A stretch of DNA of 35,452 nt. Origin: a virus (Duplodnaviria; Heunggongvirae; Uroviricota; Caudoviricetes). Location: IMG/VR virus record IMGVR_UViG_2563366975_000004, one strand, 5' to 3'. Positions 1-16,785 of this stretch are shown here, piece after piece. A model generated the notes under the pieces. That model made no database searches. It worked only from the letters and a program-made list of their open reading frames with translations, and had not been told where the DNA came from. Numbering within the stretch: position 1 is the first letter of the stretch; every line of letters begins with the position of its first letter. Position numbers and translations under genes: made by a program.

Positions 1-1131
1 TCAAATGACCAGTTTTTTCCATTCCTTACCGCGTGCGTCGTTGTAAATATCGGTCATTTTTTGATTCGAATGGCCTAGCAAAATTTTGGTATCAACCCCC
101 TGCTCTCTGAACAATCGCTCTGATAAAGATCTCTGCTCATGGAAAGAGGGTGGGGTGCCATTAGCACGCCAGTTGTAATCCACAGAATCCCGGGCTTTTT
201 TAAATGCAACGGTTAATGTTGCTGGCTTAACCATCCCGCCGCGCTTAGCTGTCCCTTTCGCGTGATGGTGGTGCAATAGCCACGGACTAAGAACGCAATC
301 GCGGCAGGATGACACTACATCATCCAGGGTGAGATTTAATTTATCGCAACGCAGAGCCAGAGGGATGGCAATCCGGGTTCCTGTTTTTTGCTGTTCGACA
401 TGAAGATAACCATCCCGGATATCCGAAAATTGCATTTTGCAAATATCTGAAAGGCGCTGGCCTGTCATCAGTGCCAGCAGCATACCGCGCTGTAAAAAGT
501 AACCATTCTTTTCCGCTGCGTTATAAATCATCATCCACTCATCAAAAGTCAGTCGCTGTCTTGATATCCGCACCTGCGGTTTTTTTGCCGATTCTGCAGG
601 GTTAAAGCCTGGCGGGACATCGCCCGTTTGCTGAGCTTCCCGGAAAACATCGATCAGTACTTTCCTGAAAATTTGTCCCATTCTGTTATGTCCTCTGGCC
701 TTGTACTCTTCCAGTACTGATACCACATCTTTTACGGTTATGGCATCTAACGGTCTGGTGCCAAAACGTTCATCAAATACCCTGAGAGGGGCCGCTTTCT
801 GTTTCAGCGTGTTGAGTTTGATCTCGCCGTTTTCATATCTTTCCTGTTGAATTTTTCTGTAATTATTCAGAAAAATGGTAACGGTTGATGAACCGCCGGT
901 ATCACTAATAATTTTCTCCTGCAGACTGAGCATTTGTTCCATTTGCTGCCGGGCAAGACGGCTGTTCGCTTCTGCTGCAATAGTTTCTGCCAGTTTCTGG
1001 TCAATACTGCCGAGACCGTGATTTTTGCCTGTTATGGGATGCCTGTAACGCCAGTAAACTTTGTTATTTCTTTTGTCAAAATACGGAGATAATCCCGGAA
1101 CATCGGTTTTATATTTTCGCGGGCGCGCCAT
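1..1131 (-). CDS. int: Phage integrase, tyrosine site-specific recombinase (376 aa)
   Basis: Complete ORF with stop at window position 1-3; C-terminal HxxR and LLGHSN...TDIY catalytic-tyrosine context typical of tyrosine recombinases; excisionase-like ORF overlaps its start. Confidence 0.85.
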   Translation of the reverse strand: MARPRKYKTDVPGLSPYFDKRNNKVYWRYRHPITGKNHGLGSIDQKLAETIAAEANSRLARQQMEQMLSLQEKIISDTGGSSTVTIFLNNYRKIQQERYENGEIKLNTLKQKAAPLRVFDERFGTRPLDAITVKDVVSVLEEYKARGHNRMGQIFRKVLIDVFREAQQTGDVPPGFNPAESAKKPQVRISRQRLTFDEWMMIYNAAEKNGYFLQRGMLLALMTGQRLSDICKMQFSDIRDGYLHVEQQKTGTRIAIPLALRCDKLNLTLDDVVSSCRDCVLSPWLLHHHHAKGTAKRGGMVKPATLTVAFKKARDSVDYNWRANGTPPSFHEQRSLSERLFREQGVDTKILLGHSNQKMTDIYNDARGKEWKKLVI

Positions 1132-1357
1132 CTTCCAGTATCCTCTTCAAAGCAGGGTGATCTGTGGCGATCACCTCCGGCTTGTTTACCATTCCGACAA
1201 AGCGAGCTTGCGGATCCACTCGCCAGCGTCTTCCAACTTTTTTGGGGAGAGGAAATATCATTCCGGCTTTAGCGTATTTACTTAACGTACTCGGAGTAGG
1301 GACCGGTTCACTGAATTCCTCTTTTGCCCACTCAGTGAGCAAAATAAGTCTTGCCAT
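1109..1357 (-). CDS. xis: Excisionase-like small DNA-binding protein (82 aa)
   Basis: Small basic ORF immediately upstream of and overlapping int by 23 nt on the same strand; position and size fit lambdoid Xis. Confidence 0.6.
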   Translation of the reverse strand: MARLILLTEWAKEEFSEPVPTPSTLSKYAKAGMIFPLPKKVGRRWRVDPQARFVGMVNKPEVIATDHPALKRILEDGAPAKI

Positions 1358-1421
1358 GAGCGTCGTTCGCTAATCATGGTCGCCGCCACTATAGCTGGTG
1401 GGCAACGACCGGGGTTGAACA

Positions 1422-3893
1422 TTAAAAATCAGCCTGATTTGGGATCAGTTTTTGCCAGATAGCTGAAACGTATTTTGCCTGGTAACGGGCGTCATCAAGT
1501 GCATTATGGCGCTCACCTTCGAATGGAATAGCCGTTCTGGCATCGAAGTCTATGGCTTTCCCCAGCTCAACGATTGTGCGTACATCGCGATCGTTGTAGT
1601 AACGCCACGGGCAGGGGATCCCCTGCCGTTCGTATGAACGGCGCAAAATCGTGTTGTCGAAGTTGGCTCCATTTCCCCAAACCTGAACAAAAAATTCACC
1701 GGAGTTTTCGTCGATAAATTCCCGCAATTGTAACAGTGCATCATCTAACGGGATTTCATCGGTCATAATGGCAGATTGCGCTTCGCGTGATTGCTTAAGC
1801 CACCATTTAATGGTGTCCCGATCAATGACTCCGCCAGCAGTTTCCAGATCGATAGTCTTACTAAATTCCGGTCCCATATCTCCGGTTTGCGGATCGAAAA
1901 ATATTGCACCTATTGAGATGATCGGGGCATCAGGATTTTTTCCCATGGTTTCAAGGTCGATCATTAGATGGTCACACGTCCTGCTGGTGGATGTGATAAC
2001 GTGATGACCGTTCACCGTAATTAAGGGATCTGCCGTCTCGCCAGTTTCACTATCGCTGGCGTGGTCCTGAGCGCTGCCAGCATTCTCCTTGTGTGGATGT
2101 TCAGCGCCTTCCATTTTCTCCGAATCGTCTTCCTGAACTTCAACCTGGTTCTTGTCATCGAATGTTTCCTGGTATGTTGCGTCGCCCATCACCGCACCAC
2201 ATTCAGGGCAGTTGCCGCCGCCGGTCTGACCGTAGGCGGTGCAGATTTTTTCCGCTTCCTGTTGCGCTACTGGCTCAGGTTGTTTCGTTTCTGGCTCGTT
2301 TTGTAACGCATTTGGGCTGTTTTGTTCCGCTTTCTGGTCGTTCTGTTCCGTTTCTTGCTGGTTCTGGTTCACAGAATCGCGGGTCTGGTTCCCCTTAACC
2401 CATTTCGGATCATTCGGGTCGCTAATCCCTTCAACAAATTCACCACGTGATACAGCAAGCAACTGATCGGCGTCAGGCTGGCTGATATTGGCTGCCTGCA
2501 TAATTTTGTTTACTTCGTCAGCGGTAACTTTTACTGACCCTGGTTGTGCGGTCGTGTCAGATGCACCAGTATTTTGTTGTGAACCTGAGTATGTACCGTT
2601 TTTGCGGGCGAAATATTCTTCTTTCGTGATTTCAGTAGCCCCAGCAGACAGCGCCTTATCCAGACCAGAAAGTTTGTTTGCGCGACCGTATTTTTCGCCA
2701 TCCTTGTCGGTGAAGAGGAAGTAGAACGGCCCCTCACGCTCTACAGATGGTTCGACTTCCACTTTGCATTCAGTTTTTTCGTTGCCCGGAATTGCCGTTT
2801 CCACTGCATCAGTTTCTGGTACTGGCGACGAGAGAGTATCAGTTGCGCTCTGATTTGTTCCTTCATCTTCAAACACGCCCTTTGTAGTCAGGTATTCAGT
2901 AATGTATTTGTTCAGTGCCACAGGGTCTTTGTGAATGTCGATCGGACGTTCACGGACAAGGCCAAAAATAGTCTGGCGGTCGTAGCGAAGGGCATCAGGC
3001 TGTTTGCGCATTGATGCCGAGATACGCTTCCAGTCTTCGCGGTCGTTGTCGATAACTTCATTTTTTGCCCAGCGATGGATGCTGCCGTCAATGTTTCCGG
3101 CATCCACATCACCAGGCCAGAGAGCGTAGGCCAGTTCGTCATCCAGTGTTTTCCATGTCTGCTTGTATTCGCGATGAATGGCAGCAATGACCGGGTTGAT
3201 TTTTCCTGTTGAATTTTCAGTGTGCTGTTGATTGGCTCTGGCGCGGGCGAGATCAACAACAGACGTGTATTTTCCGGCTTCCTTGCGTTCACCTTCGCGA
3301 CGTTTTTTCCAGATGCGCATCTCTGCCTGAATTTCGGGCCATTTGGCACCAGGCTTACATTTATGCTTAACCCACCCGATGGCATGCAGCTTAAGCTCCG
3401 GATACATGGCGTTAACTTCTGGCATTTTCATCAACGCTTCAACGATATGTCCGTCGAATGTTGCCATGTCTTCCTGCAACAGTTCCTGCGCGCTAATCAC
3501 CATATCAACGGTGATGTTTTCACATGTGTCGAACTTAACCATGACAGCGTTCTGTACTTCAGGGGCCAGCTTGTCAAAAGTGACGTTCATCGGATCTGAT
3601 TCAGTCTCAACCGGGACAAAGGAAGCAGACGCCTCATCCCAGCGGTTTTCCTGCATATATTCAGCATCCCAGGAATCTAGGGCAGGGCGGGGTATACCGG
3701 GTTTATCCTCGCAGACAAGAAATTTATAAGCGCAGTCCTGAGCAGCCGGATAATGTTCCAGGAATTGCCAGTGAAATTTTGCGCGGGCGCGACGTTCATC
3801 ACCGGCTTCAATGGCAGTGGCTACAGCGACGGCACCTTCTTCCTTTATTGCCTGTTCGTCCGGAATGGCGGCGCAAATAAAGACTTTACTCAT
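1422..3893 (-). CDS. Phage exonuclease with C-terminal DnaQ-like (DEDD) 3'-5' exonuclease domain (823 aa)
   Basis: Long ORF; C-terminus contains MIDLETMG...GNGANFD...HNALDDA motifs resembling DEDDh exonucleases; long acidic low-complexity linker; early-left position next to xis/int. Confidence 0.65.
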   Translation of the reverse strand: MSKVFICAAIPDEQAIKEEGAVAVATAIEAGDERRARAKFHWQFLEHYPAAQDCAYKFLVCEDKPGIPRPALDSWDAEYMQENRWDEASASFVPVETESDPMNVTFDKLAPEVQNAVMVKFDTCENITVDMVISAQELLQEDMATFDGHIVEALMKMPEVNAMYPELKLHAIGWVKHKCKPGAKWPEIQAEMRIWKKRREGERKEAGKYTSVVDLARARANQQHTENSTGKINPVIAAIHREYKQTWKTLDDELAYALWPGDVDAGNIDGSIHRWAKNEVIDNDREDWKRISASMRKQPDALRYDRQTIFGLVRERPIDIHKDPVALNKYITEYLTTKGVFEDEGTNQSATDTLSSPVPETDAVETAIPGNEKTECKVEVEPSVEREGPFYFLFTDKDGEKYGRANKLSGLDKALSAGATEITKEEYFARKNGTYSGSQQNTGASDTTAQPGSVKVTADEVNKIMQAANISQPDADQLLAVSRGEFVEGISDPNDPKWVKGNQTRDSVNQNQQETEQNDQKAEQNSPNALQNEPETKQPEPVAQQEAEKICTAYGQTGGGNCPECGAVMGDATYQETFDDKNQVEVQEDDSEKMEGAEHPHKENAGSAQDHASDSETGETADPLITVNGHHVITSTSRTCDHLMIDLETMGKNPDAPIISIGAIFFDPQTGDMGPEFSKTIDLETAGGVIDRDTIKWWLKQSREAQSAIMTDEIPLDDALLQLREFIDENSGEFFVQVWGNGANFDNTILRRSYERQGIPCPWRYYNDRDVRTIVELGKAIDFDARTAIPFEGERHNALDDARYQAKYVSAIWQKLIPNQADF

Positions 3894-4371: not shown

Positions 4372-4929
4372 TCAACAATGAATTTTTAGCAATTGCTCCA
4401 CAGTCATATTTTTAATTGCGCTCCGGTTTACAAGAGTCCATCCTTGTTTCTCCAGATAAAACCGGAAGGTATCCAGGGTGCAGACCATTGCGTCGTCAGG
4501 AACGGTTTCAGTGAATTTGATATTGCCGTGTTCGTCGAGACGGATAACCAGGGTGCGTCCGTCCCCGTGAATCATTTTGTCGGGAGACGGGGCGTTATTC
4601 TGGCGCAGTTCTGCTTCCATGCGGTCGAACTCAGCAATGTATGCCTCTTTAAATGCAGCGGCTTTTTTGCCAGTGAAGCCCATCACCAGGAAAACGAAGC
4701 CGTTTTTGGTGATTTGGTACATTGGGAGTTTGCGCCCGGTTGAGTCGGTGTATTCGCTTGACACAAAATTGTGCTCAGTGAATTTTGCTGAACAGTCCAG
4801 ATTGCGAATTTTATCCAACACTCGTTCGTGGCGTTTGCCAAAGAACTCGGCGATCGCAACAGACGTAGTGACAGCGCGACCATTTTCGATGGTTACGTCA
4901 GGGTGAGAAAGGGTAAGGATAGTAGCCAT
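4372..4929 (-). CDS. Phage regulatory protein Rha family (about 186 aa, start at internal ATG)
   Basis: Rha-domain motif VTTSVAIAEFFGKRHERVLDKIRNL near N-terminus; GGAGG 8 nt upstream of the ATG at 4929; the 284-aa track ORF extends upstream across an intrinsic terminator so I prefer the internal start. Confidence 0.6.
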   Translation of the reverse strand: MATILTLSHPDVTIENGRAVTTSVAIAEFFGKRHERVLDKIRNLDCSAKFTEHNFVSSEYTDSTGRKLPMYQITKNGFVFLVMGFTGKKAAAFKEAYIAEFDRMEAELRQNNAPSPDKMIHGDGRTLVIRLDEHGNIKFTETVPDDAMVCTLDTFRFYLEKQGWTLVNRSAIKNMTVEQLLKIHC

Positions 4930-5096
4930 GATGGCAGCCTCCGCGATGAATTTGATTAACTCACCACCGAGGTTTTCCACGACCATAAGGGTGGTGAGAC
5001 GTACAGGGGTGGAAATACCGGTCATCACGGAACCCGGCCAGCCTTGCGGCTGCCCTGCACGCCCCACCATAATGCGAATGTGGCTGTGCTTAACGC

Positions 5097-5121
5097 ATAA
5101 AAAAACCGCCTGAGCGCGGTT
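5097..5121 (-). terminator. Rho-independent terminator (minus strand)
   Basis: Inverted repeat aaccgc/gcggtt with 6-nt loop followed on the minus strand by a run of 7 T. Confidence 0.5.
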
Positions 5122-5414
5122 ATGCGCCGTGAATGATTTCGGGTTTCCACGCCCGGCACCCGTTTTATGAGGTGCAGGTGCACTATAATTCCACCCGTTC
5201 TGGTTTTCAATAGCTACATTCAACATTTTCTCTACCTTTCATCACCGAAGTGAACTTTGTTGATGCGGTGCCTGGTGCCTCCAGGTGACGTTAACCAGTT
5301 AACAATTAACGTCGGATACAGAGCATTCCCGTTACGCCCGTAAAAGACCGCTTGTTTTAACTGTTCCGCGTGCGCTGAGCCGCATTCACCGCATCACAAA
5401 ATTCACTTTAAAAA

Positions 5415-5467
5415 GGGCGGCAGAGCAGTCACGGAGTAGAACTGATACCGCCAAAAGTCACCAGAAA
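5415..5467 (-). ncRNA. dicF: DicF small RNA (53 nt)
   Basis: Minus-strand sequence TTTCTGGTGACTTTTGGCGGTATCAGTTCTACTCCGTGACTGCTCTGCCGCCC followed by TTTTT; matches my recollection of E. coli DicF apart from about 2 substitutions. Confidence 0.75.
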
Positions 5468-8415: not shown

Positions 8416-9393
8416 GTGTTCGGGGGTTTTATGAGCAGCAAGCTTCATGGTCTTGTCTGGGAAGGGTGCGCCTTCACCGGCATGATCTTATCCAGGGTGG
8501 CGGTTATGGCCCGTCTTGCAGACTACAGCAATGACGAGGGCGTGTCATGGCCTGCCATTGAAACTATCCGGCGTCAGATCGGTGCAAGAAGTGAATCCAC
8601 AGTGAAATCGGCTATTGCAGAACTGGCGAAAGAGGGCTGGCTGACGAAGGAAGAGCGTAAGGTCGGTGGGCGTAATGTAAGCAATATCTATCGGCTTAAT
8701 GTGGAAAAACTCGAAGCAGCTGCGGCGGCGGCGCGTGAGTCATATAAACCGAAAAGAAAAATTAGCCCGGCAAAAAATGACCCGTTAACAGTTGACCCGT
8801 CAAATATTGACCCCTCAACGGTTGACCCGTCAAATTTTGATGGATCAACTGTTGATAAAAAACTGCCGATTAGGGGGCCGATGATTGACCCCGATCCGTC
8901 AGTATTAAAACCTGATCCGTCAGATAAAAGATCTTCTTGTCCGGACGCTTCGCAACCGGACCCGCAGACGGCTGAACAGGATTTTTTAACCCGACACCCT
9001 GACGCGGTTGTGTTCAGTGCGAAAAAACGCCAGTGGGGAAGTCAGGAAGATTTGGTGTGCGCACAGTGGATCTGGGGACGAATCGTGAGTCTTTACGAGC
9101 AGGCGGCCAGCTATGATGGCGAGATCACTAGACCGAAAGAACCCAACTGGACAGCATGGGCCAATGACGTTCGCACAATGCGGATGCTGGATGGCAGAAC
9201 TCACAGACAAATTTGTGAAATGTTTGGGCGTCTCCAGCGGGATTCGTTCTGGGTAAAAAACATCATGAGTCCGGCAAAACTCCGGGAAAAATGGGATGAA
9301 CTGGTTATCCGCCTGGGGCGTTCGCCTGCGCAGCGTTGCGTGAATCACATTTCTGAACCGGACACTGAAATTCCGCCGGGCTTCAGGGGGTAA
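8416..9393 (+). CDS. Replication initiation protein (O-like) with N-terminal winged-helix domain (325 aa)
   Basis: Position after cro/cII analogues; N-terminal wHTH-like region; internal direct DNA repeats (iterons) encoding DPxTVDPSN repeats. Confidence 0.6.
   Translation: MFGGFMSSKLHGLVWEGCAFTGMILSRVAVMARLADYSNDEGVSWPAIETIRRQIGARSESTVKSAIAELAKEGWLTKEERKVGGRNVSNIYRLNVEKLEAAAAAARESYKPKRKISPAKNDPLTVDPSNIDPSTVDPSNFDGSTVDKKLPIRGPMIDPDPSVLKPDPSDKRSSCPDASQPDPQTAEQDFLTRHPDAVVFSAKKRQWGSQEDLVCAQWIWGRIVSLYEQAASYDGEITRPKEPNWTAWANDVRTMRMLDGRTHRQICEMFGRLQRDSFWVKNIMSPAKLREKWDELVIRLGRSPAQRCVNHISEPDTEIPPGFRG
8777..8852. repeat. Putative origin iterons: about 5 direct repeats of TGACCCGTCAA at roughly 15-bp periodicity
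   Basis: tgacccgtt / tgacccgtc / tgacccctc / tgacccgtc / tgatggatc at 8779, 8793, 8808, 8823, 8838, followed by A-rich tracts; inside the replication gene as in lambda O. Confidence 0.5.
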
Positions 9394-9433
9394 GTGTTAA
9401 TTTCTGGTCATGAGGTAATTTTCAGGAGGGCTT

Positions 9434-9856
9434 GTGGCAAAAGTTTTTACACAAGAAGAGCGGGAAAAAATTAAAGGGCTGATCGTGGAATTCGTACGCC
9501 TTAACGGACGAGGCACGATTCGGCAGTTATCGGATGAAATTGGTGTCAGTCATGCGTCTGTCGGTCGTTTATGCATGGAGCTGGCCGCCAGTGGTGATGT
9601 TTACAATTCCGGTTACGGAGTATTCCCGTCTGAGCAGGCGCGCAAGGACTGGCAAAACGCCCGCAAAAAACTCTCAAGGGCAAAGCTGAAGAAACCATCT
9701 GTGGTTGATCCGGACCTTATCTGGCTATTACCAGACGGCGAAATACGCCGCTACGACAGGCGTCAGAACATAATCTGTCGCGAGTGCCGGAAGAGCGAAG
9801 TTATGCAGCGCATATTGTCGTTTTATCAGGGTAATTTTCAGGAGGTAGCGCAGTGA
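9434..9856 (+). CDS. Hypothetical protein with HTH-like N-terminus (140 aa, GTG start)
   Basis: AGGAGGG RBS before GTG; segment IRQLSDEIGVSHASVGRL resembles an HTH. Confidence 0.45.
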   Translation: MAKVFTQEEREKIKGLIVEFVRLNGRGTIRQLSDEIGVSHASVGRLCMELAASGDVYNSGYGVFPSEQARKDWQNARKKLSRAKLKKPSVVDPDLIWLLPDGEIRRYDRRQNIICRECRKSEVMQRILSFYQGNFQEVAQ

Positions 9857-10347
9857 GTGCACCGGCAACCATTCTTGATATGTGCTGTGGCAGCCGCATG
9901 TTCTGGTTCGATAAGAATGACGACCGGGCGATATTTAGCGATATCAGAAAGGAAGAGCACACATTATGTGATGGACGAAGACTGATAATTAGCCCTGACC
10001 TGATAGCAGATTTTCGTGCATTACCATTTGCAGACGCATCGTTTCCGGTTGTTGTATTCGACCCTCCGCATCTTGAGCGTGTTGGTGATAACGCCTGGAT
10101 GGGAAAGAAATATGGACGGCTGAATAAAGATACCTGGCGTGATGATTTGCGGCAGGGATTTAAAGAAGCCTTTCGTGTGTTGCGGCCATACAGCGTTCTG
10201 ATTTTTAAATGGAATGAAACGCAAATACCTGTTCGCCAGATATTGGCACTGACCGACAGAAAGCCTGTTATCGGTCAACGAACAGGAAAGGGTGACAAGA
10301 CCCACTGGATTATTTTTATGAAGGAGGCGACCAGTGAGCAAGATTGA
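9853..10347 (+). CDS. Small phage DNA N6-adenine methyltransferase, Dam-like (164 aa)
   Basis: SAM-binding-like DMCCGS motif and catalytic-like VVFDPPH (DPPY-type) motif; size typical of small phage Dam proteins. Confidence 0.6.
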   Translation: MSAPATILDMCCGSRMFWFDKNDDRAIFSDIRKEEHTLCDGRRLIISPDLIADFRALPFADASFPVVVFDPPHLERVGDNAWMGKKYGRLNKDTWRDDLRQGFKEAFRVLRPYSVLIFKWNETQIPVRQILALTDRKPVIGQRTGKGDKTHWIIFMKEATSEQD

Positions 10348-10519
10348 CTATCAGGCACTGCGCGAGGCGGCGGAACAGGCAACGCAAGATGAATGGGTAG
10401 CATATATTTTGCCGGGTCATAACGGCATTTATCCTGCGCGCACGTCTGAGGGTAGGCATTGTGCGGATACTTTATTGACTGGCCTGGCGTCTGTCAGGGG
10501 CGGGAGAGCATCAACATGA
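10334..10519 (+). CDS. Ea22-like N-terminal module, short ORF (61 aa)
   Basis: Starts MSKIDYQALREAAEQA, the same N-terminal module as the Ea22-like gene at 10956; short, possibly a truncated mosaic remnant. Confidence 0.35.
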   Translation: MSKIDYQALREAAEQATQDEWVAYILPGHNGIYPARTSEGRHCADTLLTGLASVRGGRAST

Positions 10520-10959
10520 GCATCAGAACCTACGCAGTGAATTGCAATGACGCATGGCTAAACACCGAAGGTGATGACATCTCCGGCTCATACGTTAAGT
10601 ACAAAGACCATCAGGAAGTGGTTGCCGCTCTTGAGGCCAAGTGCGCGGCGCTGGCGGCGGAGAATGCGGTAATAAAGTCTGCAATTCCAGAACCACGGGA
10701 TATTGAGGACGACAATGACAATATGGATGACGTATCTCTTGCTGAAGATTTCGGGTTCAATCATGCAATAGAACTGATGAGGAGACGGATTCCTGAAACT
10801 CCGGCCACCGATGCTTTCCTGGCTGAAGTACGGGCGCAGGGCGTGGATACAGCTATCGAGCACCTGCATAAGAAGTTTAAAGGAACTGTGCTTGTTGGCG
10901 TCCCGGTAATGGCGTTGGAGTATTTAGCCGCAGAGCTTCGCAAAGGAGGCAACCAGTGA
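10516..10959 (+). CDS. Hypothetical protein (147 aa from internal ATG)
   Basis: ATG at 10516 overlaps preceding stop; acidic central region; stop overlaps start of next gene. Confidence 0.45.
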   Translation: MSIRTYAVNCNDAWLNTEGDDISGSYVKYKDHQEVVAALEAKCAALAAENAVIKSAIPEPRDIEDDNDNMDDVSLAEDFGFNHAIELMRRRIPETPATDAFLAEVRAQGVDTAIEHLHKKFKGTVLVGVPVMALEYLAAELRKGGNQ

Positions 10960-11705
10960 GCGAAATTAATTACCAGGCACTGCGTGAGGCAGCAGAACGT
11001 GCAATTCCAGCAATGGAACGCCTGTTAATGTTGCCAACTGATGATGATTTGTTAAGTGAACAGGAACTTAAAGATTACGGTGTGGATATTGATGCGCTCA
11101 ATGCCTTCAAATTTCTGACCGGACCAGAAACCGTGCTGGCACTACTGGATGAACGGGAAAGGAACCAGCAATACATCAAACGCCGCGACCAGGAGAACGA
11201 GGATATTGCGCTAACGGTAGGGAAGCTGAGAGTTGAGCTTGAGGAAGTAAAACAACACGCTGAAGAATTATCCGAAACCAAGGCTGTTCGTAACCAATGG
11301 CGGCCAGATATTTGCCCAATAACCGGACGTGCATTTTTCATGTGGATTGAGCATCCAACATTGGGGAATGTGCCGACATATGGTGGCCCATTAGATAGTT
11401 ACACCATTCCAACAAAGGACGGTGACGGTGAGTTTTCATGTGAGCGTTACGATCATGATTTTGGCGGTTGGGTAGAAAGCGAATGTCTTGGGTTATATCT
11501 GATTGATGATAGAGAACAATGCAGGGTCTACGAACTGGAGGAACGCGTTAAGGAACTGGATGCTCGGGAAATATCGCTCCCGGAACGTAGCAGCATGCTT
11601 CATCGAACAGATTTTCACGATGATTACCAAACGGTAATGGCATACAAAGTTTCTGAAGTCATCGCTGCAATCCGCGCCGCTGGCATTCGCATCAAAGGAG
11701 AGTGA
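10956..11705 (+). CDS. ead/Ea22-like protein (249 aa)
   Basis: N-terminal MSEINYQALREAAERA module and overall organisation recalled from Ea22-like prophage proteins. Confidence 0.6.
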   Translation: MSEINYQALREAAERAIPAMERLLMLPTDDDLLSEQELKDYGVDIDALNAFKFLTGPETVLALLDERERNQQYIKRRDQENEDIALTVGKLRVELEEVKQHAEELSETKAVRNQWRPDICPITGRAFFMWIEHPTLGNVPTYGGPLDSYTIPTKDGDGEFSCERYDHDFGGWVESECLGLYLIDDREQCRVYELEERVKELDAREISLPERSSMLHRTDFHDDYQTVMAYKVSEVIAAIRAAGIRIKGE

Positions 11706-11706
11706 T

Positions 11707-12222
11707 ATGGCGTTAACACACCGCGAACTCTGTCAGATTGCGTACAAGTTCCTTAAGCGCAACGGGTTCAAGGTTTGCTTTCATGACCGCTTTGTTGCTG
11801 TAACCAGTACCGGAGAACAGCCAGATGCTATGGGATTCAGAAATTCAGCATCATGCCTGATAGAGGCGAAGTGTTCTCGTGCTGACTTGTTGGCAGATAG
11901 AAAAAAGCGTTTCCGTAAAAATCCCTCACTTGGCATGGGCGACTGGCGATTCTTTATTAGTGAGCCGGAAATTATTTCAGTTGAGGATTTACCTCCCGGC
12001 TGGGGATTACTTCACGTTGTTAACGGAAGAGTACGGAAAGTACATGGATGGCCCAGGGGTAATTGCTGTTGGGGTAATCCTGACGATAAGCCATTTACTG
12101 GGAATAAGCAGGTTGAATGCGATTACATGTTATCTGCATTAAGGCGCATGGAGTTGAGAGGGCACCTTAATGAAATATATGACGGTGTGATTGTTAATAA
12201 GAAAGAAGGAAACGCGGCATGA
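11707..12222 (+). CDS. Hypothetical protein, possible PD-(D/E)xK nuclease fold (171 aa)
   Basis: D...IEAK-containing segment (DAMGF...CLIEAKCS) compatible with a PD-(D/E)xK core; weak assignment. Confidence 0.4.
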   Translation: MALTHRELCQIAYKFLKRNGFKVCFHDRFVAVTSTGEQPDAMGFRNSASCLIEAKCSRADLLADRKKRFRKNPSLGMGDWRFFISEPEIISVEDLPPGWGLLHVVNGRVRKVHGWPRGNCCWGNPDDKPFTGNKQVECDYMLSALRRMELRGHLNEIYDGVIVNKKEGNAA

Positions 12223-12626
12223 TCACTATTACCAAAGGGCGACTGCTGACAATCAAGCAGTGGCGCGAAACATACGGACCGGGTAGCAACGTTGTACTGC
12301 CAGCAGAAGAAGCGGAAGAACTGGCACGAATTGCACTGGTATCGCTGGAAGCAGAGCCGGTGGCAAAGATTATAGCTCATTACCCATTAGGAGTTGACGT
12401 AGGCAAACAAAAGTTCGTACAGGCCATTGGAGAGCTTCCTGACTTTGGCGGATATCTATTTGCCGCCCCTCCAGCGCCGATAGTGCCGGAAGAAGCAACT
12501 CCGGAAAACGTAGAAATGCTCTCTGGCTATGTTTCCACGTACAAATTAACCGATAGCGAGCGCGATATTGCTGCCGAAATATGGAACGCCTGCCGCGCCG
12601 CTATGCTTCATGGGAAAGGAGAGTGA
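12219..12626 (+). CDS. Hypothetical protein (135 aa)
   Basis: ORF translationally coupled to upstream gene; starts MITITKGR, a module repeated at 12902. Confidence 0.45.
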   Translation: MITITKGRLLTIKQWRETYGPGSNVVLPAEEAEELARIALVSLEAEPVAKIIAHYPLGVDVGKQKFVQAIGELPDFGGYLFAAPPAPIVPEEATPENVEMLSGYVSTYKLTDSERDIAAEIWNACRAAMLHGKGE

Positions 12627-12627
12627 T

Positions 12628-12891
12628 ATGGCAACTTTAACAAAAAAAGAACGGGCATGGTTGAACGAATTACAGGACGTTCTTGATCGCTGCCCATCAC
12701 CGAAAAAAATTGGTTTTTACACCATTGGCGATAAAAGCATTTACCTGTATGACCTGCGCCGCATGGATGAAATCATGGAGGCTCTTGATAATCGTTCGTC
12801 GATGGATTGGTGTGTTGCTGTTCATGATATGAATGCAGGGTTTGATGAAAAGATTTTGTTCCCCTCATCAGTTGAAAGCACTGCGGGTTAA
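12628..12891 (+). CDS. Hypothetical protein (87 aa)
   Basis: ATG preceded by AAGGAGAG RBS. Confidence 0.45.
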   Translation: MATLTKKERAWLNELQDVLDRCPSPKKIGFYTIGDKSIYLYDLRRMDEIMEALDNRSSMDWCVAVHDMNAGFDEKILFPSSVESTAG

Positions 12892-12901
12892 GGAGTAACA
12901 C

Positions 12902-13045
12902 ATGACCACTATTACCAAAGAACGTATTGAATTGTTCATTAAATTTTCAGGAGGCGGTACTGTGAGTGAAATTAGCTATCAGGCTTCAATTACCGCTGGC
13001 ATTCGCATCAAAGGAGAGGAGCATGGAAATAAAACCAGAGGATGA
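12902..13045 (+). pseudogene. Chimeric remnant ORF (47 aa) fusing MTTITK, SEISYQ and AGIRIKGE modules
   Basis: Contains gtgagtgaaattagctatcag (Ea22-type start) joined to gctggcattcgcatcaaaggagag, which also ends the Ea22-like gene near 11680; looks like a deletion/recombination scar. Confidence 0.35.
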
Positions 13046-13379
13046 GTTAAGCAATATCGTTTTATTTCCGGTAAAAGAGGATGACCCTCGTAATCAGGTT
13101 AATTTTCTTTATGAGCCATCGGAAAGACCATATTGTCATCACGCCTCTGTCCGGGTTGACGAAAAAGAGCGTCAGGTCCGCTGTAAAATCTGCGGTGCAG
13201 TTGTGGAACCATTTGACTGGATGCTCTCTGTGGCGAAAAGAGAAACCAGACTGGCAGATGATGTAAGGCTATTGCGCCAGGAGGAACAGGAAAGGCGAAA
13301 AAATATAGAAAAGCTAATTCAGATTGAGCGTAACGCGAAAGCGCGGATACGCAGGGCGACAAAATCCAGAACTGAATAA
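13023..13379 (+). CDS. Hypothetical protein with Cys/His cluster and basic coiled-coil C-terminus (118 aa)
   Basis: AAAGGAGAGGAG RBS; CHH...CKIC motif suggests a zinc ribbon. Confidence 0.45.
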   Translation: MEIKPEDELSNIVLFPVKEDDPRNQVNFLYEPSERPYCHHASVRVDEKERQVRCKICGAVVEPFDWMLSVAKRETRLADDVRLLRQEEQERRKNIEKLIQIERNAKARIRRATKSRTE

Positions 13380-13472
13380 TTAAATTTAGCTCTGTTAAAA
13401 ATTTAATCCTTAACCGGAGGGATTTCTGCACCCTCAGAACATCAGGAGGCCGCCCGAAAGGGCGGTAGTTAA

Positions 13473-13655
13473 ATGCGAAAGTTTAAAATAATTATTGAAA
13501 CGGGAATAGCCGGTGGAGATTTCGAGGATGAATTCGAAGTGGATGATGATGCGACGCCTGATGAAATACATGACGAAGCAAAAGATATTTTCTTTAACTA
13601 CTGCAATTACTCATATCACGAAATAAAAGACGAAGAGGAAGAGCAAAATGGCTGA
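13473..13655 (+). CDS. Small highly acidic protein (60 aa)
   Basis: D/E-rich sequence; AGGAGG then a GNRA-loop hairpin immediately before the ATG. Confidence 0.45.
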   Translation: MRKFKIIIETGIAGGDFEDEFEVDDDATPDEIHDEAKDIFFNYCNYSYHEIKDEEEEQNG

Positions 13656-13824
13656 TTTTGGTTCAACTAAATACAACGTCAGTTTTGAAGCATGGCATGA
13701 ACTGTTAATGGACTATGCAGAGTTACGTGGTGGCAGTGCTGCTGATGCTGAAGCATGGCGTGATGATTATGAAGCAGGAAAAACTCCGGTCGAAGCATAT
13801 TGTGATGAGTGGGGCGATGAATGA
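13648..13824 (+). CDS. Small acidic protein (58 aa; not in ORF track)
   Basis: Hand translation MADFGSTKYNVSFEAWHELLMDYAELRGGSAADAEAWRDDYEAGKTPVEAYCDEWGDE; overlaps neighbours at both ends. Confidence 0.4.
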   Translation: MADFGSTKYNVSFEAWHELLMDYAELRGGSAADAEAWRDDYEAGKTPVEAYCDEWGDE

Positions 13825-14137
13825 GCGAGGTTAATTATCAGGAAGGGCATGAAACGGCGGGGCAAGCAAAAACAGTGGCATGGCGATATCGCTACGTGAA
13901 AAAAAAGGCGTTACGGACTTTCAGGGGAAGTAGTGGTCTGGTGACTGGAAATATGTACCGAAAAAAGAGGATTGTAACGACAGGCCGAACTATGAAATTC
14001 AGGCCTTATTCACTGCCCCGCCAGTCCCGGTTACATCAGAAGAACTGGTTAAAGCTGTGCACTTTTATGAACAACTAAAACGCGAAAATCCACCAGCATC
14101 CGGAAACCTGATTACAGATTCCCAGATAAGGCAATGA
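13821..14137 (+). pseudogene. Degraded Ea22/DUF551-like gene with frame disruption
   Basis: Starts MSEVNYQ then becomes K/R-rich nonsense after an A8 homopolymer (about 13897..13904); a protein-like segment WSGDWKYVPKKEDCNDRPNYEIQALF... sits in another frame with no start. Confidence 0.35.
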
Positions 14138-14307
14138 GCTACCTGGCGCAGAACGGGCTGATAAGTATGGGGAATGTTTTACGATGAATATTTAGACTAA
14201 AGAGTTTGTAACGCTATGTAAGTGATTTTTTCTGGTTTAGATATTTATATGTCCGGCCAAATTGAGGTGTGTTTAAATGTAATTGCACATTGATTGTAGG
14301 AGGAATA

Positions 14308-14487
14308 ATGAAAAACGCATTGCAGTTTTTGTTTGTTGCGTTCTGGTTGTTCGTATCATGTATGCCCATCATCTTCACAGCAAGGTATATGGAAAAAGTT
14401 GATGTTTTGATATTAATATTTGGATATATAAATGCCCTTTTTTTAGGGGTGTTCATGGCGGTCATGTGCATTGAATACTGGCGGTAA
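14308..14487 (+). CDS. Small hydrophobic membrane protein (59 aa) in AT-rich island
   Basis: GGAGG 6 nt upstream of ATG; two predicted hydrophobic helices; AT-rich context just upstream of hok locus. Confidence 0.45.
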   Translation: MKNALQFLFVAFWLFVSCMPIIFTARYMEKVDVLILIFGYINALFLGVFMAVMCIEYWR

Positions 14488-14574
14488 ATACAGCGAACGC
14501 CATTGGTTTAGTTGGATATTTACTGTGCCGGACAAAAACGGTTTGCGGGGAAATCTTAGTTAAGTAGAATGACT

Positions 14575-14745
14575 GCGGGTGCTTGAGGCTATCTGTCTCA
14601 GGCATGAACACCAAAAGGCAGATAGAGAAAAGCCCCAGTTAACATTACGCGTCCTGCAAGACGCTTAACATTAATCTGAGGCCATATCTATGCGACACAT
14701 AGAGATTAGCCTCTTACGGACCGAAAGGTCAAGGAGAAGCAGGCT
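14575..14745 (+). promoter_or_regulatory. hok mRNA leader with mok-like upstream reading frame
   Basis: Leader segments gcttgaggctatctgtctcagg and tagcctcttacgg...caaggagaagcaggctATG resemble the recalled R1 hok/sok leader. Confidence 0.45.
14630..14700 (-). ncRNA. Expected Sok-like antisense RNA (position approximate)
   Basis: Inferred from hok/sok locus architecture only; antisense to the mok start region; no independent sequence signature identified. Confidence 0.25.
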
Positions 14746-14901
14746 ATGAAGCAGCAAAAGGCGATGTTAATCGCCCTGATCGTCATCTGTTTAACCGTCA
14801 TAGTGACGGCACTGGTAACGAGGAAAGACCTCTGCGAGGTACGAATCCGAACCGGCCAGACGGAGGTCGCTGTCTTCACAGCTTACGAACCTGAGGAGTA
14901 A
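14746..14901 (+). CDS. hok: Hok/Gef-family type I toxin (51 aa; not in ORF track)
   Basis: MKQQKAMLIALIVICLTVIVTALVTRKDLCEVRIRTGQTEVAVFTAYEPEE closely matches the Hok/Gef consensus as I recall it; AAGGAG RBS. Confidence 0.8.
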   Translation: MKQQKAMLIALIVICLTVIVTALVTRKDLCEVRIRTGQTEVAVFTAYEPEE

Positions 14902-14971
14902 GAGACCCGGCGGGGGAGAAATCCCTCGCCACCGCTGATGTGTCAGGCATCCTCAACGCACCCGCACTTAA

Positions 14972-15000
14972 CCCGCTTCGGCGGGTTTTGTTTTTTCTGG
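14972..15000 (+). terminator. Rho-independent terminator after hok
   Basis: aacccgc-ttcg-gcgggtt hairpin followed by ttgttttttct. Confidence 0.5.
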
Positions 15001-15068
15001 TCGTTCTGGTTTACAATCCATCCGTCAGCCTGAACAACTGGCACCTGCTGCGCCAGCAGAGAAAACAG

Positions 15069-15347
15069 ATGGCGCACGATACCAAATTTTACAATTCGGA
15101 TAACTCTGCCGCCCCTGCCAGCAGGCACGGGCGGCGTTCCCGCACTTTCAAATCTGACTGGTTCCAGCATCCCCCATGCACTGAAGAACAGGCCGAGTGG
15201 CTAATTCAGTGCTACCGCAGACACGGATACGAGATTAAGAAAGCCCTCAGCCTCGATTATCGTCACTGGATAATCTCCGTCAGGCTTCCTTACTCCGAAC
15301 GACCACCGCGTCCGTCCCGCACATTCCAGCAACGCATCTGGAGGTAA
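15069..15347 (+). CDS. Hypothetical protein (about 92 aa from internal ATG)
   Basis: Only the C-terminal part of track ORF 14940..15347 is plausible because its N-terminus runs through the hok terminator; weak RBS. Confidence 0.3.
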   Translation: MAHDTKFYNSDNSAAPASRHGRRSRTFKSDWFQHPPCTEEQAEWLIQCYRRHGYEIKKALSLDYRHWIISVRLPYSERPPRPSRTFQQRIWR

Positions 15348-15348
15348 C

Positions 15349-16404
15349 GTGCGGGTATTACTTCGACCTGTTCTGGTACCGGAACTCGGGCTGGTGATCG
15401 TTAAGCCGGGCCGTGAATCCATGCCGGTATTCCACAATACCCGGGTACTGGTGGAGCCGGAACCGAAAAGCATGCGTAATCTGCCGTCCGGGGTCGTTCC
15501 TGCCGTTCGCCAGCCGCTGGCGGAGGATAAATCATTACTGCCATTTTTCAGCGACGAACGAGTGATTCGTGCTGCTGGTGGCGCTGGCGCATTGTCTGAC
15601 TGGTTACTGCGCCATGTTAAATCCTGCCAGTGGCCACACGGTGATTATCACCACAGTGAAACCGTCATTCACCGTTATGGTACCGGCGCAATGGTGTTGT
15701 GCTGGCACTGCGACAACCAGCTGCGCGACCAGACATCCGAATCACTCGGGCAACTTGCTCACCAAAACCTGTCTGCATGGATGATTGACGTCATACGCCA
15801 TGCAATGAATGGCTCGCAGGAACGGGAATTATCGCTGGCTGAATTATCCTGGTGGGCGGTCCGCAATCAGGTGGCGGACGCGCTACCGGAAGCGGTATTA
15901 CGTCGTTCGCTGGGGTTGCGTGCGGAAAAAATCCGCTCAATGTACCGTGAAAGCGACATCGTACCGGGAGAGCAGACCGCCACCAGCATACTGAAGCAGC
16001 GCACAAAAAATCTTGCGCCGCTGCCTCACGCCCACCAGCAAAACCCGCCACAGGAAAAGACGGTGGTCAGCATTGCCGTTGATCCCGAGTCACCGGCTCA
16101 GTATCTCCAGCGCCAGAAATCACAACGGGAAGAGATGCCTGTATACACGCGCTGGGTAAAAACGCAGAAATGCATGACGTGTGGCAATCAGGCAGATGAT
16201 CCGCATCACATCATTGGTCATGGACTGGGAGGGATGGGAACAAAGGCTGATGATTTGTTTGTTATTCCGCTGTGCCGTAAATGCCATAGCGAACTACACG
16301 CCGGGGTAAAAGATTATGAAGAAAAACACGGCAGCCAGCTGTTGTTGCTGATTCGTTTTTTAATGCACGCGAGAAATTCGGGTGTTCTGAAGTGGAAAGC
16401 ATAA
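15349..16404 (+). CDS. DUF968-type prophage protein with C-terminal HNH-like Cys/His motif (351 aa)
   Basis: C-terminal CMTCGNQADDPHHIIGHG...CRKCHSELH resembles an HNH zinc-binding core; sits between hok and rusA as ydfU-like genes do. Confidence 0.55.
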   Translation: MRVLLRPVLVPELGLVIVKPGRESMPVFHNTRVLVEPEPKSMRNLPSGVVPAVRQPLAEDKSLLPFFSDERVIRAAGGAGALSDWLLRHVKSCQWPHGDYHHSETVIHRYGTGAMVLCWHCDNQLRDQTSESLGQLAHQNLSAWMIDVIRHAMNGSQERELSLAELSWWAVRNQVADALPEAVLRRSLGLRAEKIRSMYRESDIVPGEQTATSILKQRTKNLAPLPHAHQQNPPQEKTVVSIAVDPESPAQYLQRQKSQREEMPVYTRWVKTQKCMTCGNQADDPHHIIGHGLGGMGTKADDLFVIPLCRKCHSELHAGVKDYEEKHGSQLLLLIRFLMHARNSGVLKWKA

Positions 16405-16785
16405 ATGACTGAACGCATAGAATTTGTTTTGCCTTACCCGCCAACGGTGAACACTTACTGGCGTCGTCGTGGCAGCACATATTTTGTATCAAAAGCCGGG
16501 GAGCGTTATCGCCGGGCAGTGGCGCTTATTGTTCGCCAGCAGCGGCTGAAATTAAGCCTGTCCGGAAGGTTGGCAATAAAAATTATTGCAGAACCACCGG
16601 ATAAGCGCCGCCGTGACCTGGACAATATTCTGAAAGCGCCGCTGGATGCGCTGACGCATGCGGGGTTGCTAATGGACGATGAGCAGTTTGATGAAATCAA
16701 TATCGTTCGTGGTCAGCCAGTATCTGGTGGACGTCTGGGGGTGAAGATTTACCCCATAATGCATGAAGAGCAGGTCAAAAAATGA
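16405..16785 (+). CDS. rusA: Holliday-junction resolvase RusA (126 aa)
   Basis: N-terminal FVLPYPPTVNTYW and acidic catalytic region RRRDLDN...D typical of RusA. Confidence 0.85.
   Translation: MTERIEFVLPYPPTVNTYWRRRGSTYFVSKAGERYRRAVALIVRQQRLKLSLSGRLAIKIIAEPPDKRRRDLDNILKAPLDALTHAGLLMDDEQFDEINIVRGQPVSGGRLGVKIYPIMHEEQVKK

Follow-up and report, generated by a model that had tools for sequence, protein, structure and literature searches.

Positions 10334-14187 of the stretch analysed here, the whole of which (35,452 nucleotides [nt], IMG/VR record IMGVR_UViG_2563366975_000004, Caudoviricetes) is called the window, hold the accessory genes of a Rac/Qin-type lambdoid prophage, arrayed in its early-right operon with the replication/DUF977 genes on one side and hokD, DUF968, RusA and Q on the other. 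The comparisons below support a mosaic region in which flanking genes reassort between phages at short conserved junctions. We consider it highly probable that the array as a whole is made of genes shuffled at such junctions, with two dead genes, a recombination scar and a run of eight adenines (A8) that is neutral because it sits in a pseudogene. The bounding DUF977 gene and hokD/Q were identified from the NCBI Prokaryotic Genome Annotation Pipeline (PGAP) annotation of the E. coli Ecol_316 chromosome (NZ_CP018957.1), to which window positions 9140-15500 are 100% identical without gaps (6.3 kb), and from Pfam scans of the window open reading frames (ORFs), which confirmed Q, the integrase and Rha.

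Several short sequences are repeated at the gene junctions of the array (Table 1). A degenerate 22-mer for the start module (RTGAGYRARRTTRRYTAYCAGG) matches exactly four times in the window, at 10334, 10956, 12962 and 13821, and was absent from 100 shuffles. The 3' end of the Ea22-like gene (CCGCTGGCATTCGCATCAAAGGAGAG) occurs at 11677-11702 and again, as an exact 26-nt copy, at 12993-13018, while a shorter form of this linker (AAAGGAGAG-N4-ATGG) has another copy at 12615. The MTTITK module, CATGA(T/C)CACTATTACCAAAG, is found at 12218 and 12901 with 19 of 20 positions matching. The start module at four sites, the duplicated Ea22 3' end and the kinship of the MTTITK module with the start of the gene at 12219 had all been described in the initial annotation, whose sequence features all lie no more than 3 nt from the positions given there. 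Pattern searches for the start module, the 3' end and the linker gave no further copies in the 35 kb and none in 100 shuffles, a control that is partly circular because the patterns were built from the copies themselves. An independent repeat search detected a family of 62 nt with members at 10321, 10943 and 13808 (82% and 68% identity), a 23-nt family at the four start-module positions and a 43-nt family at 11677, 12598 and 12993, the first 26 nt being identical between 11677 and 12993. The start-module copies differ mainly at third codon positions. One more repeat, absent from the initial annotation, consists of the DUF977 gene's 3' end, present at 9833-9859 and 12942-12968 as a 27-nt direct repeat with 81% identity.

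At both types of junction one reading frame hands over directly to the next. The 5' module reads AAA GGA GGC AAC CAG TGA overlapped by GTG AGC, encoding KGGNQ and a stop codon followed by MSxIxYQALRE; more generally, (L/I)RKGGNQ and the stop overlap GTGAGC-xxx-ATT.A.TA.CAGGCACTGCG. The 3' module reads ATC AAA GGA GAG TGA T ATG G, in which the end of the upstream protein (GIRIKGE) is followed by TGAT and ATGG, the start of the next gene. An AAGGAG(G) Shine-Dalgarno sequence lies within the last codons of the upstream gene (K-G-G or K-G-E), 6 nt before the next start, and at both modules the stop and start overlap or almost touch. For these reasons we infer that the junction modules are translational-coupling signals and conserved as such.

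The same junctions connect different genes in other phages. An exact-pattern scan of IMG/VR for ATCAAAGGAGAG-N4-ATGG (at least 120 contigs) yielded 99 sites of the I(R/G/H)IKGE family of 3' linkers, where 12 classes of upstream gene ends and 10 classes of downstream gene starts occur in 33 combinations. One upstream end, SIINSIATGIRIKGE with its stop codon, precedes four different classes of downstream gene (two MATLTK alleles). In 3374 locus pairs that differ on both sides, the sequence shared exactly at the 3' linker has a median length of 24 nt (range 12-46). The 5' module was found at 109 usable sites in viral contigs, where the proteins beyond residue 16 have at least 13 unrelated bodies and the upstream gene is one of several, DUF977 among them. 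In keeping with this, the window's 61-amino acid (aa) N-terminal ORF matches eight PHROG families solely through its first 16-43 residues (mostly 22-30). As in boundary-sequence mosaicism, the junction sequence is shared despite both flanks differing, and many flank combinations exist. The viral loci were picked for containing junction motifs and many of the contigs are related, so these counts do not represent independent events.

Breakpoints were located by megablast of window positions 9400-14700 against 221 fetched loci, and the ends of high-scoring segment pairs (HSPs) were counted within 10300-14200. Thirty-nine percent of the 460 HSP ends (116 positions) fall at most 25 nt from an ORF start or stop, a zone comprising 20% of the sequence, in a set of loci that is motif-selected and non-independent. 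Clusters near gene boundaries lie at 10319-10333, 10921-10944, 11667-11712, 12218-12240, 12610-12624 and 13465-13485. Others are intragenic: those at 11124-11159 and 11228-11260 mark the edges of a shared, exchangeable coiled-coil segment in Ea22-like gene 2 (approximately 11124-11260), the one at 12350-12365 coincides with the SLEAEPVA motif, and the scar joints form another large cluster. Chimeras in the protein database swap exactly at SLEAEPVA, all of them running into the WRYRY core of the last gene of the array, with the N-terminus of the window's Ea22-like gene 2 in P0069, an MTTITK N-terminus in P0074 and other N-termini in P0087 and P0051. The window has its own chimera of this kind at 12219-12626, identified by matches to phrog_60, 660 and 5117 and by phage matches that stop at 12353-12364; PGAP annotates 12219-12353 as an incomplete coding sequence.

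The initial annotation took the repeats as a record of active modular recombination at short linkers. Reassortment at the junctions agrees with this, but the left joint of the scar (12902-13022) has 2-nt microhomology within coding sequence. When positions 12860-13060 were searched against 5426 complete E. coli genomes (2224 matching records), the whole scar composite was present in 73 of the 5426 genomes. In about 40% of the matching records (18 of 45 rows sampled at even intervals) the match is confined to 12942-13060, and here the Ea22 stub and the zinc-ribbon gene directly follow an intact DUF977 gene, for example in L003. Other records match 12860-12943 only and continue into a real 53-aa gene beginning MTTITKERIELFIKNPLENG (L006). 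The alignments indicate that the joint at 12942/12943 is illegitimate and placed inside two coding sequences, 14 codons of an MTTITK gene being fused to the tail of a foreign DUF977 gene. Since the parental arrangements share 2 nt and the joint lies inside both coding sequences, it is not considered linker-mediated.

The Ea22 stub to the right of this joint has a separate history. It precedes different genes in different phages, namely the zinc-ribbon gene here and in L003 and a DUF551 gene in O157:H7 EC4115 (L008), where the switch falls directly after AAAGGAGA; in L007 an intact Ea22-like gene is followed by the same zinc-ribbon gene, with the match starting at 12994. The stub is older than the left joint and is widespread, and therefore offers no evidence of recent activity in this genome. 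Compared with L003, this genome appears to have gained the 3.1-kb block 9860-12941 as an insertion, with a DUF977 end on either side. The scar is spanned by a 47-codon ORF (12902-13045) that has its own protein-family entries (WP_000207966.1, a PGAP hypothetical protein, and phrog_19884); this ORF is a chimera of three remnants and a by-product of the joints, and probably not a real gene.

One of the two dead genes is the first Ea22-like gene, a frameshifted pseudogene (10334-10959, plus strand) that is read as the two ORFs 10334-10519 and 10516-10959. Both match Pfam Ead_Ea22 (PF13935, gathering score 27 bits), the former with 54 bits over profile positions 1-45 and the latter with 39.4 bits over positions 48-138. 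DNA alignment identified an uninterrupted 228-aa form in three viral contigs (L099, L201 and L214), and the sole difference at the break is CATTGCGG in the intact contigs versus CATTGTGCGG here, a TG to TGTG duplication at 10460-10463. Contigs L100 and L130 also carry the split gene, and in RefSeq the halves are separate "ead/Ea22-like family" proteins (WP_001300192.1 and WP_001586955.1).

The other dead gene is the last of the array (13821-14187), which the initial annotation described as an Ea22-type and DUF551-like gene broken at the A8 run. The A8 does disrupt the frame, but the gene is of the phrog_660 type (unknown function): its repaired 104-aa translation matches this family with E = 5.5e-28 (residues 2-99, profile 34-124 of 193) and has no Pfam match at E<=10, to either PF04448 (DUF551) or PF13935. 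Membership of the Ea22 family was accordingly rejected, the likeness being limited to the 7-residue start MSEVNYQ and the upstream junction, and so was the DUF551 label, as PF04448 is found in 1 of the 120 listed homologues (P0010), in an extra C-terminal domain that is absent here. Homologues of 104, 119, 129 and 171 aa exist. Alignment with the intact 171-aa gene in L223, located through P0018, revealed four lesions: an A6 to A8 expansion at 13899-13906; a TAG stop at 13931-13933 in the ancestral frame, where intact genes have CCG (as in L223) or CAG; a 90-bp in-frame deletion between AATCCACCAG repeats at approximately 14087-14096; and a frame-shifting deletion of about 60 bp after 14103. 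The original C-terminus, PDKAMSYLAQNGLISMGNVLR, can still be read in another frame up to a stop at 14185-14187, beyond the end at 14137 assigned initially. In the Qin-type copy of other strains, A6 is accompanied by the same TAG and the same 90-bp deletion.

The two C-terminal deletions alone may constitute a tolerated allele and not lethal lesions, since some genomes keep an intact 104-aa ORF with them, and this copy is killed by TAG and A8. Two relatives of 13821-14137 (P0003 and P0060) keep A8 and regain the frame through a second small indel, giving 105-aa ORFs that cross the TAG position in another frame; these could be compensatory mutations or assembly errors. In E. coli ATCC 25922 (L005, 2944-3333) the "intact" 129-aa homologue is itself a truncated product, shortened with respect to the 171-aa form by the loss of 1 nt; the phrog_660-type family decays repeatedly and independently.

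The A8 tract is the longest A-run in the region and is 2 nt longer than the in-frame A6 of intact genes; upstream of it the frame is that of 13821, and the homologous continuation is in the -1/+2 frame. Tract lengths from A5 to A9 occur among complete E. coli genomes. Exact-allele searches with a TAG-bearing flank (for A8, a 71-mer that includes TAG) found A6 in about 461-475 complete genomes, A7 in about 58-61, A8 in about 336-339 and A9 in 1; the counts are given as ranges because the >=99% identity band takes in a few partial alignments (for A9, 14 records in the band and 1 full-length exact match). TAG follows 8 codons downstream of the tract in every allele queried, and the in-frame product is 37-38 aa at any tract length. 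The out-of-frame ORF that opens at 13821 (13821-14078) spans 85 aa. A8 arose by slippage in a pseudogene, where it is fixed and neutral, and the tract slips over evolutionary time.

Small genes packed head to tail are joined by 5' and 3' junction modules that, we propose, are kept for translational coupling, leaving patches of 12-46 nt of identity. Because the junctions are conserved, they would offer these patches to co-resident phages, which may exchange the flanking genes there by homologous or homeologous recombination through a presumed recombinase. The coiled-coil segment and the SLEAEPVA linker would act likewise as exchange points inside genes. Random damage has been added on top: the 2-nt microhomology joint at 12942/12943, formed onto a DUF977 tail that already carried the old Ea22 stub; the TG duplication that split the first Ea22-like gene; and the death of the last gene through TAG, two deletions and slippage from A6 to A8.

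Some observations weigh against this proposal. The enrichment of HSP ends at ORF boundaries is only about twofold and several clusters are intragenic, and the combination tables demonstrate shared junctions and not an unbiased exchange rate, because the loci were selected by junction motif and many are related. The argument for coupling is one of sequence geometry. Apart from the exact 26-nt copy, the junction copies in this genome are only 63-82% identical, which does not indicate recent exchange within the genome. No single-strand-annealing recombinase was found among the window ORFs tested: ten large ORFs gave an integrase, a 3'-5' exonuclease-domain protein, Rha/Ash, Q, a methylase and IS21 genes and no Red-beta/RecT, with smaller early-left ORFs only partly covered. 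Finally, P0001, P0002 and P0004 are intact 104-aa ORFs with the same two C-terminal deletions as the last gene.

All joints could instead have arisen by random illegitimate recombination and selection for intact genes, as in the Hendrix model, with the motifs conserved for expression only. The sole joint for which both parents were identified (12942/12943) has 2-nt microhomology inside coding sequence, and about 60% of HSP ends are away from ORF boundaries, as this model would have it. We nevertheless find it unlikely, considering that pairs differing on both sides share exact stretches of 12-46 nt precisely at the linker, that breakpoint clusters coincide with linker patches and that homology this short or diverged is known to suffice for phage recombinases (PMC2327257). 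That one Ea22-like gene was duplicated in tandem within the lineage and then diverged, which would make the likeness of the junctions residual homology, is very unlikely. Three neighbouring ORFs do match Ead_Ea22, and third-position differences between the start modules are what diverging paralogues would show; however, the same junctions link unrelated genes in the 33 combinations of other phages, the modules are separated by unrelated sequences (phrog_9263, 1714, 1621 and 660), and the parental arrangements of the scar exist as separate genomes. A bolder extension of the exchange hypothesis would make the junction modules dedicated cassette-exchange sites, loosely like integron attC, that are served by an annealing recombinase of phage origin; on this view the array would be a library of genes for host interaction or anti-defence, purpose-built to reshuffle rapidly, and the R/KGE of Ea22 a signal at the DNA or RNA level, not a protein motif. 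To this we assign little credence.

Two other explanations concern the A8 run, which the initial annotation regarded as a possible sequencing error or phase-variable switch. That the tract turns the last gene on and off, by phase variation or as a programmed -1 frameshift site, is suggested by its length polymorphism (A5-A9) and by the zero frame GTG AAA AAA AAG, a dnaX-type slippery heptamer (A_AAA_AAG) from which a -1 shift re-enters the ancestral frame. As a frameshift site it was rejected, given that the -1 frame is closed by TAG after 9 codons and yields no meaningful extended product. As a phase switch it fails because the same TAG stands 8 codons on in the A6, A7, A8 and A9 alleles, so that no tract length restores the gene; moreover, deletions of 90 bp and about 60 bp separate this copy from the intact gene, PGAP labels the copy "frameshifted; internal stop", and A6 and A8 do not occur mixed, each being fixed in hundreds of genomes. 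A switch for the full-length protein is already refuted, and there is hardly any chance that the tract regulates the gene. Sequencing or assembly errors in the record, as the source of A8 and of the other frame disruptions, are just as hard to credit. Homopolymers are error-prone, and the rare A7, A9 and A5 alleles could in part be errors elsewhere, yet the exact 71-mer occurs in some 336-339 independent complete genomes, which identifies A8 as a common fixed allele; the 6.3 kb are identical to an independent record, and the split Ea22 gene recurs in two other contigs.

The surroundings of the array are those of a lambdoid prophage. No Rfam family reached its gathering threshold within 10334-14137 when the entire window was scanned, and the repeats therefore do not correspond to any known RNA element. 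Promoter and terminator scans showed no excess inside the region, with fewer sites than in shuffled sequence, which is consistent with one uninterrupted operon and goes no further. Within the array, PGAP tags 11707-11885 of Ecol_316 as a "frameshifted" pseudogene, although the 171-aa ORF is unbroken and matches phrog_9263 over its whole length. Directly 3' of the pseudogene at 13821 is a hok/sok type I toxin-antitoxin system (sok RNA at 14577-14748, Rfam, 106.7 bits; hokD-like ORF at 14746-14901). On the left side, Rfam matches on the minus strand (4987-5466) comprise the C4 antisense RNA (4987-5074), isrK (5099-5175) and DicF (5415-5466), adjoined by a Rha/Ash-type gene (4372-5226). Beyond Q and a DNA methylase gene come two tRNA genes (19277-19349 and 19360-19433), and after these the small RNA STnc100 in two tandem copies (19700-19893 and 20169-20357). 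An IS21-family insertion sequence occupies 21661-23912 (minus strand) in the late region, with an IstB-like ATPase (21661-22416) and a transposase (22413-23912), which suggests that the prophage may be defective.

Table 1. Junction modules, scar components and genes of the accessory array, and landmarks on either side (window coordinates)
Feature	Position	Strand	Remarks
DUF977 3' end	9833-9859	+	Overlaps the GTG start of the next gene (AATTTTCAGGAGG..GTGAGTG); L003 aligns to both repeat copies
27-nt repeat, left and right copies	9833-9859; 12942-12968		Bracket the 3.1-kb cassette block
5' junction/start module, copy 1	10321-10382	+	Shine-Dalgarno AAGGAGG, GTGA stop/start overlap, MSKIDYQALREAAEQA
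5' junction/start module, copy 2	10943-11004	+	LRKGGNQ and stop / GTGAGCGAAATTAATTACCAGGCACTGCG; junction at 109 viral-contig sites
5' start module, copy 3 (weak, 68%)	13808-13869	+	Ea22 likeness limited to MSEVNYQ
3' junction module, copy 1	11677-11712	+	AGIRIKGE and stop, then TGAT and ATG of next gene; 99 family sites in viral contigs
3' junction module, copy 2	12615-12631	+	AAAGGAGAGTGATATGG
Ea22-like gene 2, intact, 249 aa	10956-11705	+	PF13935, 102.7 bits
Cassette gene, 171 aa (MALTHRELCQIAYK..)	11707-12222	+	phrog_9263/631; common downstream partner of 3' linker
Chimeric gene	12219-12626	+	MITITK N-module to SLEAEPVA (12342-12365), then different C-terminal body ending HGKGE and stop
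Cassette gene, 87 aa (MATLTKKERAWLNE..)	12628-12891	+	phrog_1714
Stub, first 14 codons of MTTITKERIELFIK.. gene	12902-12943	+	100% to L006 type until 12943, not beyond; intact (53 aa) in L006
Illegitimate recombination joint (from alignment)	12942-12943	.	Left parent matches 12860-12943, right parent 12942-13060; shared dinucleotide AA
Remnant of second DUF977 allele, last 24 nt	12942-12965	+	NFQEAVL and stop, GTGA overlap; identical to intact DUF977 end in L003
Ea22 stub	12962-13022	+	Start module MSEISYQA and Ea22 3' end (12993-13018); carries Shine-Dalgarno of next gene
Zinc-ribbon-like gene, 118 aa	13023-13379	+	phrog_1621
DUF7167 gene (13473-13655) and overlapping 58-aa gene (13648-13824)	13473-13824	+	Move with the 13821 pseudogene as a block
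phrog_660-type pseudogene	13821-14187	+	Intact form 171 aa; PGAP "frameshifted; internal stop"; ancestral stop 14185-14187
Integrase	1-1131	-	Pfam
Repressor region			After the DicF/C4/isrK RNAs in gene order
Helix-turn-helix replication-initiator-like gene	8416-9393		
DUF977 gene	9434-9856		
Small S-adenosylmethionine-dependent methyltransferase gene	9853-10347		
hok/sok	14577-14901		After the region
DUF968, RusA			Follow hok/sok
Antiterminator Q	16782-17603		Follows RusA

The significance of these results beyond annotation is slight. In the annotation, 10334-10519 and 10516-10959 should be treated as two halves of one frameshifted gene and not as two genes, the 47-codon ORF as a recombination scar and not as a gene, and 13821-14187 as a pseudogene whose several lesions mean that resequencing of the A-run would not rescue it. 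The region also places both accepted routes to mosaicism, boundary-sequence exchange and an illegitimate joint, next to each other. For the terminal K/RGE of Ea22 proteins a simple explanation is offered, in that its codons double in this array as the Shine-Dalgarno sequence for the gene that follows.

Lambda Ea22 has the same architecture as the Ea22-like genes described here. Ea22 proteins consist of a conserved N-terminal part, a coiled coil and a divergent C-terminal domain with a terminal R/KGE motif "of unknown significance" (Dydecka et al. 2020, PMC7093339), and PF13935 is shared with two genes of the region, the first of them as two ORFs that both match. In contrast to lambda, the copies are found on the right-hand side of the replication genes and not in the exo-xis region, one is frameshifted, and the 13821 gene shares only 7 residues. 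The closest counterpart of that gene is the Qin-type prophage pseudogene (for example in O157:H16 98-3133 and a strain labelled DH5alpha), with the same TAG, the same 90-bp deletion and the same "frameshifted; internal stop" tag; unlike the window copy, it has A6 and keeps 57 bp that are absent here.

Passages of PMC3029335 and PMC2327257 that cite Clark et al. 2001 present two established routes to lambdoid mosaicism, one through short conserved boundary sequences and the other through illegitimate recombination, and lambda Red recombines sequences with 22% divergence (PMC2327257). As those passages portray the boundary sequences (Clark et al. 2001 for HK620; Susskind & Botstein 1978), the modules resemble them in their position at gene junctions and in their unrelated, reassorted flanks, and differ in being found in the accessory region downstream of Rac/Qin-type replication genes and in reaching into coding sequence (N-terminal MSxIxYQALRE; C-terminal GIRIKGE and RKGGNQ). 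The novel-joints model (Hendrix et al. 1999; Juhala et al. 2000), as outlined in the same two articles, is matched by 12942/12943 with its homology of at most 2 nt and its junk 47-codon ORF, but fits that one joint only, whereas the others coincide with conserved patches. The whole picture falls within known lambdoid prophage biology, and its mechanism is one already recognised in the literature.

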